From assembly GCA_004022145.1 (NCBI GenBank), contig RCNU01000002.1: a stretch of 64,000 nucleotides of DNA. One strand, written 5' to 3'. A program made the position numbers and the translations under genes. Numbering within the stretch: the stretch's first letter is position 1; each line of letters opens with the position of its first letter. The notes beneath the pieces were generated by a model. That model saw only the letters and a program-made list of their open reading frames with translations. It was not told the origin of the DNA and searched no databases. The stretch comes from Paecilomyces variotii (Eukaryota). Shown one piece after another: positions 42,904 to 45,814 of the stretch.

Positions 42904-43721
42904 ATGCTGTCTCTTATTCTAATAATCTTTTTTGTCCATCTGGCAATATACCTCGTGAACACGATCGGCGCAGCTACGATTGACAGTCTGGTACGAGCTA
43001 CCTTTCCTTTCCCGTTTTGACTTTTCGGAGCTCCATCATGCCACATGTTCGCATATGCGCTCAGCGGGCACTCAGAGTCTATATTCTGCTCTTAAATGCA
43101 CGGAGAGCTGATTTTATGGTAATATAGTTATGGATCGTCTACCTCAAACTCCCAACCGCTACGTCGAGGAATGCGAAGGAACAAGCGCGACTCAAACGTG
43201 AGGTGATACAGTTGAAGCGAGAGATGAACGCGACAAGCTCCCAGGATGAGTTTGCGAAGTGGGCGAAGCTGCGGAGGAGACACGATAAGACCATGGAGGA
43301 GTTCGAGACATTGAGTATGTACACTGTCATGTTCTTTGCAGAGAGTATATGGCTAATACGGTGGACTTTTTTGCTTCCAGACAAGATCATCGGTGCCAAC
43401 AAGAGCTCTTTCGAGTGGACCGTCAAAGTCGCACGTTGGCTTAGCACCAATGGATTCAAGCTGTTCCTGCAGTTTTACTATTCAAAGACGCCTGTTTTCG
43501 AGCTTCCACCGGGGTGGTTCCCTTACTACGTGGAATGGGTGTTGGCCTTTCCGCGGGCGCCGATGGGCACAGTCAGCGTCCAGGTCTGGGGCAGCGCCTG
43601 TGCAGCGGCCATCTCTCTGGCAGGCGATATCGTCGCATCTGCGGTGGCTCCGTCAAAGACACGAAAGGCGCAGGCTGTCCCTGCCGGCAGTGACAAAGAA
43701 GCCGACAAGAAGACGCAGTAA
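42904..43721 (+). CDS. get1: GET pathway ER insertase subunit Get1 (3 exons; an in-frame upstream ATG exists at 42817)
   Basis: [56 protein letters not shown]. Confidence 0.95.
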
Positions 43722-44020
43722 TCTTGTTATAATGAAGGAAGACAAAAAAAATACTACTCTTTGTAATTTTTTTCAATATTTGAATGGCTATATGAATGTA
43801 TATAACGGAAGAGTCATTCCATACGACCGAAGCTCGGCCGCCTCCAATCAAAATGAGGGCATTACGATGTTCGTCAGATATGATTAACAATCTTTATCGT
43901 CAACGACGCCGAGGTATATACCAGGGAATCTCTGTGCTTGACTCTATGATTGGTATATCATCACTCGAACATACCCAAATAATGTGAAGATAAATGGAGA
44001 CAAAAAAGAAAGAAAAAAAA

Positions 44021-44098
44021 GGATAGAGTCCGACCCCTTCGACAGGGTTTCTGCGAAGCAAGACACCAGATCTTTCCTCAAGATCCGTCAAACTCTCC
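44021..44098 (-). other. Unexplained 78-nt four-way-junction (cloverleaf-like) RNA element followed by a U-tract
   Basis: Minus strand: closing stem AGAGUUUGAC/GUCGGACUCU; arms GGAUCUU/AAGAUCU, UCU(U)GC/GCAGA and CCCU/AGGG; then UUUUUUUUCUUUCUUUUUU. Confidence 0.55.
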
Positions 44099-44148
44099 AC
44101 TTCACCGCTTTGCTATAAGCTACAGACTCAAAAATAAAATCTGAAATG

Positions 44149-44526
44149 AACTCCTCGCCTCAAGAATGAGCCCCATTGAGTTACCCACGCAGACCGCGAA
44201 GGATCCGCGCGAGCAATCGCATGACTATACAACCTCGACGAAAAGCAACCCAATTGAAACCCTTCTCCCCGCTCACGCCGTACCACAATTGTTTCCACCG
44301 AAGGCGTCGGGCACGATCGAAAGCAGGGGAAGGAAACAGGGCGTAAGCCGCTATCGAATTGCTTCTATGGCGGCGCGTTTCCGCATTGCCTGACAGAGCC
44401 AGTTCCTCGAAAGAGAAACCGGGCAGGATGTCCGGGGACTTTCTCCCAAAGCTTGAGATGGTATGAGTTTCCTGAAAGGAAAACTCTGTGCGTGAGCTTT
44501 GAATGCGATTCTTTGAGCGAGGAGTT
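44149..44526 (-). ncRNA. RNase MRP RNA (~378 nt)
   Basis: P1 AACUCCUCGC-UCAA/UUGAG-GCGAGGAGUU; P2 AAUCGCAU/AUGCGAUU; P3 CAAAGCU..AGCUUUG with internal loop; CR-I GAAAGUCCCCGG; P8-like UGCG-GAAA-CGCG; CR-IV AUAGUCA; P19 hairpin; CR-V CAAUGGGGCUCAUUC. Confidence 0.93.
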
Positions 44527-45175
44527 GGGAAAAGAAAGAAAGAAAAAGGAAAAGATCAGTGGGACGGGAATTTTTAAACGGGTTTGTTCGAGGAAAGTGG
44601 ATTTGGCGCTAGTCTGTTTTAGGGTAGTCATGTGACTTATATCGCTTGCCGTATTGGGATATATAGAATATCGTCCATGTTGGTTCTCGATCTCTTTTTC
44701 TGGGGGCGTATGATTTTAGATTATATAAGACAGATGGTTGTGAAAACGGCGCTACAACAAAAAGTTGTGACCTTTACTATTCGATTTTCTCAGTTTCTTT
44801 CTAACTCGGTACATACTACATACCTAGTAAAAAAGAGAGTCAGACCTGCTGGTAATGAAAGAACTATCCATATCAAAAGCATCTTCAACTATAAAGCACT
44901 CACCAGCAGACCAGAAATAACATGATTCCTGTATGGAACTGCTTCCTACATCCTAGTAAGCAAGGTATAGAATATACATCCCTGTCAATCGTCGCCCAAC
45001 CTCCCCAACACGGCAAGATCTGATCCGCAGCAGCCCACGGCTCACCGCTTGTAATTTCAGTATTGATTTATATGATTCTCATCCACTTGACTTGTATTAT
45101 TTTTTTCTCCATCAAATCATTAACCCCTCTTTCAACAAAGACACAACCCCCCCAAAAAAACAGACTCCATCCAAA

Positions 45176-45814
45176 ATGAACTTCGAAAACGCCAAAGGAA
45201 ACATGCTCAGCGTAATGGCCCCCTCTATACCACAAACCCGCACCTGCTCAGCATGCAAGAGACCCGAGCCCGCCTCACCCACTCCTTCACAGACCTTAAA
45301 GAGATGCGCCCGCTGCCATATCACCATCTACTGCTCTCGCGAGTGTCAGAAAGCGCACTGGAAAGCAGACCACAAGAACCGGTGCATATGGGGCGCGATT
45401 CGCAATAATATCTACCTCGATTCGCTTCCGGAAGAAGACGCCATGAAGCAGCTGATTGATGTGTATCGGATGCGTGTTGAGGATGATTATAAGTTTCGGG
45501 GTGATGCTCATGGTCTTTATGGATTGGAGGATCCGTTGGATGATTTCGAAGAGTTTCTTGATCTTGCGGAGGAGCAGATGGAGAAGGAAAAGGAAGATGC
45601 GGGGGGTCTTAAGAGGGCGGGGATTCTGCCTAGGTGGTGGTGCGAGGAGAAACGGAATGCTTGTGAGCGGAAGGCGATGAGAGATCCGTGGTGTCGGATT
45701 ACATATGCGGTTGAGAAGGGAGATATCCAGGAGCATTATAATGATGATATGATGCCGATGAAGCTGCGGATGTTGGGTGAAACGGTATATGGTTTCAATG
45801 TGATGACATTTTAA
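45176..45814 (+). CDS. MYND zinc-finger protein
   Basis: CSAC...LKRCARCHITIYCSRECQKAHWKADHKNRC plus LIDVYRMRVEDDY...LPRWW...MKLRMLGE domain. Confidence 0.85.
   Translation: MNFENAKGNMLSVMAPSIPQTRTCSACKRPEPASPTPSQTLKRCARCHITIYCSRECQKAHWKADHKNRCIWGAIRNNIYLDSLPEEDAMKQLIDVYRMRVEDDYKFRGDAHGLYGLEDPLDDFEEFLDLAEEQMEKEKEDAGGLKRAGILPRWWCEEKRNACERKAMRDPWCRITYAVEKGDIQEHYNDDMMPMKLRMLGETVYGFNVMTF

Follow-up and report, generated by a model that had tools for sequence, protein, structure and literature searches.

A Conserved tRNA-Like Element between the RNase MRP RNA and an snR66-Type Small Nucleolar RNA in Paecilomyces variotii and Other Fungi: A Candidate Processing Signal

Introduction

Processing signals shaped like transfer RNAs (tRNAs) are known as a kind from several groups of organisms. 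Plants have genes, transcribed by RNA polymerase III (Pol III), in which a tRNA stands immediately upstream of a box C/D small nucleolar RNA (snoRNA). In one such dicistron, the tRNA-Gly-snoR43.1 of Arabidopsis, RNase P is described as cutting first and RNase Z thereafter (PMC3858429), and tRNA–snoRNA dicistrons have been described as exclusive to plants (PMC2780460). RNase P also cuts the tRNA-like structures that separate the functional RNAs of a polycistron in tRNA punctuation and in the t-elements of plant mitochondria (PMC3858429). In mammals, the noncoding RNA MALAT1 (and likewise MEN-beta), a product of RNA polymerase II (Pol II), is followed directly on its 3′ side by a tRNA-like structure with a degenerate anticodon arm, and the maturation of this structure, mascRNA, is reported to depend on RNase P (PMC7522407). 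Here we describe a conserved tRNA-like element that lies between the gene for the RNA of RNase MRP (MRP RNA) and an snR66-type box C/D snoRNA gene in the filamentous fungus Paecilomyces variotii, on the minus strand of a stretch of 64,000 nucleotides (nt) of contig RCNU01000002.1 (assembly GCA_004022145.1; hereafter the window), and we compare it with its counterparts in other fungi. An original prediction, made from the letters of this stretch alone, had placed a tRNA-sized four-way junction just downstream of the MRP RNA.

The fungal locus resembles each of these systems in part. It shares with MALAT1 the position of a tRNA-like structure behind a noncoding RNA; the likeness is functional and architectural only, with no similarity of sequence or model (Rfam, E ≤ 10). 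Unlike MALAT1, the fungal unit has a functional snoRNA after the mimic, and its mature MRP RNA stops short of the predicted cut by about 18 nt, which would have to be trimmed off after the putative cleavage. With the plant dicistrons it shares a tRNA-shaped unit immediately upstream of a C/D snoRNA. The plant unit, however, is a functional tRNA, whereas the fungal one is a non-decoding mimic that is invisible to tRNA finders; the fungal unit is moreover headed by the MRP RNA, and its T runs are incompatible with read-through by Pol III. The t-elements and tRNA punctuation are organellar, whereas the fungal case is nuclear and concerns a spacer between two noncoding RNAs. The gene order itself has a counterpart in Saccharomyces cerevisiae, in which SNR66 is listed as the immediate same-strand neighbor of NME1, the MRP RNA gene (PMC9731477), and the one yeast-like locus of our sample (L001) retains a three-way version of the element; yeast snR66 needs 5′ processing as well, but is handled as an Rnt1p substrate (PMC4334505).

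Full-text searches found no literature on a tRNA-like or otherwise structured element separating MRP RNA from snR66, nor on an MRP–snoRNA dicistron, with a mention in the primary papers on yeast snR66 processing remaining conceivable. The terms NME1 and snR66 are absent from the main texts of a fungal snoRNAome (PMC5824354) and of a survey of 17 conserved fungal structural RNAs (PMC8216456), the supplements of which might list the region. We found no earlier account of the element in the MRP–snR66 spacer, which is apparently undescribed.

Results

Linkage of MRP RNA, Spacer Element, and snR66-Type snoRNA

The Rfam model of the RNase MRP RNA (RF00030) matches the window at 44523..44153 on the minus strand with 107.3 bits (E 4.4e-29), in agreement with the gene that had been recognized there before. 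About 180 nt downstream of the MRP RNA, and some 55 nt downstream of the structure first drawn, begins a box C/D snoRNA. In a permissive Rfam scan of 43700–44200, snosnR66 (RF00477) is the top snoRNA family (33 bits, E 0.0015), below its gathering score of 65 bits; the filamentous-type loci introduced below score 25.8–38.7 bits, and only L001 passes, with 85.3 bits. The C box and the D′ guide align with the Rfam (yeast) consensus, and the Neurospora crassa homolog of snR66, CD2, is described as “intergenic” and as guiding 26S-Um2379 through its D′ guide (PMC2780460). This snR66-type snoRNA is the second cistron of the locus, which the original prediction had missed.

Metagenomes were scanned with a degenerate motif of the snR66 C box and guide, which gave 29 fungal loci. 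The Rfam MRP RNA lies just upstream on the same strand at gathering score in 23 of them. Three more (L025, L023, and L006) have truncated or sub-threshold matches, obtained with a permissive threshold that was applied to 13 of the 29 loci, and in L022 the MRP 3′ end was seen by eye; L013 (about 150 nt) and L028 (19 nt) have too little upstream DNA to judge the linkage. All 28 loci that have DNA upstream of the snoRNA carry the element, in the order MRP RNA, element, snoRNA, and the linkage of MRP RNA with snR66 is general in this sample of fungi. The spacers between the two RNAs span 110–206 nt (23 loci measured), and almost certainly they hold a conserved structured element.

A Covarying Cloverleaf in the Spacer

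In the window, the minimum free energy (MFE) structure of 44132..44022 on the minus strand is a clean cloverleaf (−38.5 kcal/mol, z −2.84, with one of 200 shuffles as good), and the plus strand of the same segment folds worse (−21.6 kcal/mol, z −1.03). The helices are spaced as in a tRNA, with a 7-bp acceptor stem, 2 nt, a 4-bp D-like stem, 1 nt, a further arm, 4 nt, and a 5-bp T-like stem that abuts the acceptor stem (table 1). A 7-nt anticodon loop is not found: the variable arm, which takes the place of the anticodon arm, has loops of 4–6 nt or long insertions.

The window and 13 other sources form a group with the same type of element (group A), whose 11 distinct sequences were aligned with MAFFT. 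Without guidance, RNAalifold recovered from them the same four helices (acceptor, D, variable, and T) with 21 pairs, seven of which are compensatory. The pairs of the cloverleaf are formed in 97.8% of the alignment cells, against 32–50% when the 3′ partners are slid by 1–3 columns, and none of 500 shuffles reaches this value. The same is true of the double-change cells (16, against 4.9 in shuffles; seven pairs have double changes) and of the covariation score (0.314, against 0.190), each of which was reached in 0 of 500 shuffles. The double changes sit in the variable-arm and T stems, and the acceptor stem varies one-sidedly within group A. Folded singly, seven of the ten group-A homologs take the cloverleaf as their MFE structure; the other three (L021, L024, and L026) keep the acceptor stem and fold differently in the interior.

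A covariance model (R1) was built from the group-A alignment and searched over 30 sources. It gave one match per source and none elsewhere in the 64-kb window, with 63–91 bits in the 14 group-A sources (84 bits in the window). Outside this group its matches are weak, with 18.7–25.7 bits in group B (L015, L004, and L027) and 11.6 bits (E 2.8) in L010, and it misses all nine loci of the L009 type, which together with L010 form group C; the L009-type elements were located by a T-arm anchor and complementary 7-mers. The register of the element was set by eye in L017, L004, L002, L027, L026, L001, and L010, after which RNAalifold confirmed the corrected elements. In a model-fitted alignment of 15 distinct rows, which leans toward the structure, 96.9% of cells are paired and nine pairs show double changes.

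The comparison beyond group A separates a constant from a variable part. The acceptor and T stems form a contiguous minihelix of 12 bp; over 19 distinct sequences its pairs are canonical in 222 of 228 cells. Here the acceptor stem has switched fully at pair 1 (G-C to C-G), pair 2 (A-U to G-C), and pair 5 (C-G to U-A), T-stem pairs 1–5 each occur as two to five canonical pair types, and the T-like loop has the consensus N-U-C-R-N-A, with the UC invariant in 19 of 19. Being kept across all 19 sequences, this 12-bp minihelix with its T-loop-like cap is the universal core of the element. The D arm or the variable arm is missing in groups B, C, and D; groups B and C have a Y shape of acceptor stem, one long arm, and T arm. 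The element ranges from 50 to 113 nt, and conservation is lowest in its long arm, with regard to both length and sequence. The shortest form, of 50 nt, is that of the yeast-like L001, which has an acceptor stem CGGUUUG/CAAACCG and D-like and T-like hairpins; between this three-way junction and snR66, at about 5125–5104 on the minus strand, L001 has a separate 9-bp hairpin capped by AGUU. The element is conserved with covariation across divergent ascomycete-type loci. As a rough gauge of this divergence, exon 2 of the neighboring Get1-like gene is 38–73% identical to that of the window across 15 loci of groups A and B.

The cloverleaf differs from the fold first proposed for the window, a 78-nt four-way junction closed by AGAGUUUGAC/GUCGGACUCU. 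A segment of 83 nt that contains this fold (44100..44018, minus strand) is indeed a stable local structure (−29.5 kcal/mol, z −2.06, 4 of 200 shuffles as good), so that on the window sequence alone it does better than chance only modestly; its MFE structure has a three-way and not a four-way junction, and the longer cloverleaf is the more stable (−38.5 kcal/mol). Over the 11 group-A sequences the 10-bp closing stem pairs in 50.6% of cells, no better than its controls (38–45% when slid; 342 of 500 shuffles as good), and its 5′ strand falls in an insertion that the other sequences lack. The bounds of 44002–44098 were likewise misplaced, as the conserved 5′ partner of the acceptor stem, GAGUCUG at 44129–44123, begins 31 nt outside them. 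Among the arms, the 7-bp hairpin GGAUCUU/AAGAUCU with its GAGGA loop is real but belongs to an insertion in the variable arm that only the window has, and what was taken for an arm with a UUC(G) loop is the 3′ strand of the closing stem of the variable arm. The T-like arm CCCU/AGGG with a GUCGA loop and the T8 and T6 runs are present as described, and the minus-strand orientation read from the G-U pairs is right; the plus strand of the 83-nt segment folds worse (−20.2 kcal/mol, z −1.51). As a conserved structure the four-way junction is refuted, and that it should be the functional unit is scarcely credible; it may be a competing fold in this species. The covariation expected among homologs is found, in the redrawn cloverleaf.

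Transcription across the Spacer and Adenylated 3′ Ends

To follow the transcripts, we used the Logan contigs of four metatranscriptome runs from three studies over 43000–45200; such contigs cannot show the ends, strand, or abundance of RNAs and may merge overlapping molecules. A contig of 300 nt in run X19 extends from 44173, inside the MRP RNA, to 43870; its depth is 72, that of the MRP body 2074. On its way lie the T4/T5 runs upstream of the element, the entire element with the T8 and T6 runs behind it, and the snoRNA, so that every spacer position is bridged by reads in minus-sense RNA. In runs X10 and X16 one long contig each covers 43000–44527, in which the transcripts cannot be separated. 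None of the four runs has an RNA contig over 44554–45200, upstream of the MRP gene, which argues against DNA carry-over. Transcription beyond the MRP 3′ end, on which the proposal of a downstream module depended, is therefore observed over the whole spacer.

The MRP contigs of X17 and X19, from two studies, stop at 44147 and continue with 22 and 18 non-templated T on the plus strand, which amounts to poly(A) on the minus-strand MRP RNA, that is, to an adenylated 3′ end. The RNA-supported 3′ end thus lies at about 44148/44147 (..GAGGAGUUC[A]), 5–6 nt beyond the end of the Rfam model, and AGUUC or a near variant follows the model end in most loci. On the 5′ side of the MRP RNA the contigs stop at 44526–44546, where a masked low-complexity tract adjoins, and this gives a weak hint only. 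The X19 contig across the spacer ends at 43870, 3–4 nt after the D box of the snoRNA, and carries 21 non-templated A in RNA sense. The poly(A) on the MRP RNA in two studies and on the snoRNA in one run suggests that both RNAs pass through adenylated intermediates of surveillance or processing.

The distance from the element to the C box is just 16–18 nt in groups B and C and in L006, which leaves no room for a separate snoRNA promoter. Transcription of the snoRNA would thus start either at the MRP promoter or at one within the element.

A Possible Dicistron Cut by tRNA End-Processing Enzymes

The reading that we favor, at about even odds (roughly 0.5), is that MRP RNA and snR66 form a Pol II dicistron in which RNase P and RNase Z cut a tRNA mimic that separates the two RNAs. 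We infer the polymerase, the two cleavages, and the enzymes responsible as follows. Pol II would make one precursor with the MRP RNA, the element, and the snoRNA, in which the tRNA end-processing enzymes would recognize the mimic. Nuclear RNase P would cut 5′ of G44129; the MRP precursor would keep a U-rich tail at its 3′ end, and trimming of about 18 nt would then yield the mature end near 44148. The tRNase Z would cut after U44025 and leave a pre-snoRNA with a short 5′ leader, which 5′–3′ exonucleases would trim to the boundary of the snoRNA–protein particle (snoRNP), and the excised tRNA-like piece would be a by-product comparable to mascRNA. The idea of a cotranscribed tRNA mimic goes back to the original prediction; the tRNA spacing, the covariation, and the RNA contigs that run from the MRP RNA through the spacer bear it out, whereas cleavage by RNase P and RNase Z is still conjectural.

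T runs terminate Pol III. The runs of T8 in the window and of at least six U in L019, which lie between the element and a snoRNA that is retained in both, therefore argue for Pol II; L024 has seven T after the element. In S. cerevisiae, Pol II has been reported on both NME1 and snR66 (bioRxiv 10.1101/352906). An acceptor stem with a T stem-loop is described as a minimal substrate of RNase P (PMC3858429), and the coaxial acceptor/T minihelix of about 12 bp characteristic of RNase P and tRNase Z substrates is found in all 19 distinct sequences.

Several observations weigh against this reading. The X17 run has no contig over the spacer, a contig that spans two genes does not prove a single molecule, and no contig ends at 44130/44129 or at 44025/44024, though contigs cannot show ends. 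Scans of the window and of 23 of the 29 loci with ARAGORN gave no tRNA, and no Rfam 15 family, tRNA (RF00005) and mascRNA-menRNA included, matches the element at E ≤ 10 in 43700–44200 or in 13 loci. A T loop of 7 nt closed by G53-C61 is not found either: 18 of the 19 sequences have a 6-nt loop, and the T stem mostly ends in U-G. All four pairs of the D-like stem are invariant, so that covariation lends this stem no support and it may be conserved as a DNA motif; a Pol III terminator would likewise account for the conserved U run ahead of the element. The AGUU hairpin before the snoRNA in L001 and the Rnt1p dependence of yeast snR66 indicate that another enzyme frees the snoRNA at least there.

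A first alternative is that the element acts as DNA, as a Pol III promoter or TFIIIC site with an A-box-like D arm and a B-box-like T arm. It might be a small Pol III gene that drives the snoRNA, as in the plant tRNA–snoRNA genes or the leader of yeast SNR52, or else a downstream TFIIIC element of an MRP gene transcribed by Pol III, comparable to the B box of yeast SNR6, with the U run as the MRP terminator. The D-like arm, UAGCUUAUGGCAAAGC, is near-invariant across the 11 group-A sequences, its four stem pairs being fixed. It resembles the A-box consensus (UAGCUUAUGGCA in homologs, UAGCUUAUAGCA in the window), as GUCGAA in part resembles the B-box core, and the statement that the element lacks A and B boxes is therefore only half true. 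A run of at least four U precedes the acceptor stem by at most 25 nt in 17 of the 19 distinct homologs, and the T runs that follow the element in the window, L019, and L024 have their parallel behind tRNA genes. The U-rich leader of the window could accordingly be either the 3′ tail of the MRP precursor left by the cleavage or a Pol III-type terminator. The covariation of the acceptor, variable-arm, and T stems, in contrast, indicates selection on RNA pairing, which a DNA site does not need, and the Y-shaped elements of groups B and C have no D-like arm. The equivalents of tRNA positions 53 and 61 are U-G and not G-C. The leaders of L024 and L004 have only U3, and a T8 or longer run before the snoRNA would halt Pol III, whereas RNA contigs cross both the upstream T5 and the downstream T8 and T6 runs. 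Trailer U runs of at least four are present in only 7 of 19 distinct homologs and are thus not conserved. Given also the Pol II on the two yeast genes, we consider a Pol III element unlikely.

In the second alternative, a different nuclease, such as an RNase III of the Rnt1/Pac1 class, would take the element as its signal, or the element would block 3′–5′ and 5′–3′ trimming and so set both ends. The variable arm has long helices, yeast snR66 is an Rnt1p substrate, and the 9-bp AGUU-loop hairpin of L001 has the shape of a classic Rnt1p site. The long arm is nevertheless the least conserved part of the element, no AGNN-capped stem is kept in groups A to C (the hairpin of the window has a GAGGA loop and is itself not conserved), and the conserved acceptor/T minihelix with its U-C loop is not a known determinant of RNase III. 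The AGUU hairpin occurs only in L001 and stands apart from the three-way junction, so that the RNase III signal contemplated in the original prediction finds no counterpart in the lineage of the window, and we regard this alternative as quite unlikely. For yeast snR66 the two routes need not exclude each other: it is described as an Rnt1p substrate “also processed by other ribonucleases” (PMC4334505), which leaves room for a second pathway and fits the extra hairpin of L001.

It is also conceivable that the element is never cut and serves as a module for protein binding or folding (by La, tRNA-binding factors, or the proteins shared by RNase P and RNase MRP) that aids assembly of the MRP ribonucleoprotein or the snoRNP and is later removed by exonucleases. 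It is conserved right after the MRP RNA, beside a U tract like those that La binds in yeast pre-U3 and small nuclear RNAs, and no cleavage ends are seen among the contigs, which cannot show ends. No positive evidence speaks for such a module, and a tRNA-type geometry would meet ready-made nucleases in every nucleus; the distance of 16–18 nt between element and C box in several lineages fits a cutting site. We therefore hold it to be distinctly improbable and retain the dicistron cut by RNase P and RNase Z as the favored explanation.

Features of the Locus and Its Neighborhood

The features of the locus in the window are collected in table 1.

Table 1.— Positions of the features of the MRP–snR66 locus in the window.
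Feature	Position	Strand	Sequence or structure	Basis or remark
RNase MRP RNA gene	44148..44527	−		Rfam model span 44523..44153; 3′ end from RNA contigs
U-rich leader	44130..44139	−	UUUUAUUUUU	Sequence; directly 5′ of the tRNA-like element
Conserved tRNA-like element	44026..44129	−	104 nt	MFE, RNAalifold, covariance model
Acceptor stem, 5′ strand	44129-44123	−	GAGUCUG	Pairs with CGGACUC
Linker	44122-44121	−	UA	
D-like arm	44120-44107	−	4 bp GCUU/AAGC, 6-nt loop AUAGCA	
Single nucleotide	44106	−	G	
Variable arm	44105-44053	−	Closed by GUGAAGUG/UGCUUCGC	
Window-specific insertion	44061..44097	−		In variable arm; gaps or unrelated sequence in the other 10 group-A sequences
Strand of the fold first proposed	44096-44087	−	AGAGUUUGAC	Inside window-specific insertion
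Hairpin, 8 bp	44087-44067	−	CGGAUCUU/AAGAUCUG, GAGGA loop	Inside window-specific insertion
Variable region	44052-44049	−	AGAA	
T-like arm	44048-44033	−	5 bp: ACCCU, loop GUCGAA, GGGGU	Abuts acceptor 3′ strand
Acceptor stem, 3′ strand	44032-44026	−	CGGACUC	
Discriminator-position U and pyrimidine tract	44002..44025	−	U 44025; T8 44020-44013, T6 44007-44002	
snR66-type box C/D snoRNA	43870..43972	−		Boxes read from sequence, Rfam alignment, RNA contig end
snoRNA terminal stem		−	7 bp, AUGUUCG/CGAACAU	Sequence
snoRNA C box	43963-43958	−	UGAUGA	Sequence; aligned with Rfam (yeast) consensus
snoRNA D′ guide		−	CAUAGAGUCAAGC	Aligned with Rfam (yeast) consensus
snoRNA D′ box	43934-43931	−	CAGA	Sequence
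snoRNA C′ box	43902-43897	−	UGACGA	Sequence
snoRNA D box	43877-43874	−	CUGA	Sequence
Get1-like gene	43128-43721	+	Tail-anchored protein insertion receptor type	Named by eye; converges on the snoRNA
Get1-like intron	43315-43380	+	GT..AG, 66 nt	Confirmed by a joint in an X17 RNA contig

Upstream of the MRP RNA (44556–44650, minus strand), the window has an A-rich TATA-like box about 35–45 nt before the RNA. A palindromic motif, TCACATGAC, stands about 110 nt before it and is found again upstream of the MRP RNA in L019 (twice), L017, and L024, with the version TCACCTGAC in L021, and a motif like CTAGCGCC is likewise recurrent. The TATA-like box and the recurrent motifs are possible shared promoter elements. 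Within the MRP RNA, a contig of X17 has a joint between 44186 and 44337 that leaves out 150 nt of the variable middle, with only 20 letters on one side. Joints with so short a flank often stem from other organisms, and this one, which probably comes from a different fungus in the sample whose MRP RNA matches the conserved parts only, was not used as evidence.

Short RNA contigs of X17 and X19 match only the conserved part of the snoRNA with the C box and guide (43930–43963) and then diverge, the one of X17 continuing like the snoRNA of L028; snR66 RNAs of other fungi are therefore present in the same fermentation samples. The Get1-like gene is syntenic in the window and most group-A loci. A contig of X19 (43701–43899, depth 27.6) extends from its 3′ end to 43899 and so overlaps the last 30 nt or so of the snoRNA gene; contigs being strandless, this could be a convergent 3′ untranslated region antisense to the snoRNA or read-through beyond the snoRNA.

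Discussion

The formation of the MRP RNA 3′ end in fungi is poorly described, and the route by which a snoRNA without space for its own promoter is expressed is unclear. For both, the tRNA mimic in the MRP–snR66 spacer supplies a concrete hypothesis that is testable in existing yeast mutants. The wider form of this proposal, that across the Ascomycota RNase P makes the 3′ end of the MRP precursor by way of the mimic and tRNase Z releases snR66, we put forward tentatively, as somewhat short of an even chance.

For annotation, the block of MRP RNA, element, and snR66 is a syntenic landmark, the middle part of which no Rfam family covers. If the proposal is true, a single tRNA-shaped “comma” would couple the MRP ribozyme, a guide for ribosomal RNA methylation, and the tRNA-processing machinery, and it may also yield a stable small RNA like mascRNA. 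Processing of the mascRNA type and of the plant tRNA–snoRNA type would then reach nuclear Pol II transcripts of fungi, and RNase MRP would depend functionally on RNase P, the sister enzyme with which it shares most of its proteins.

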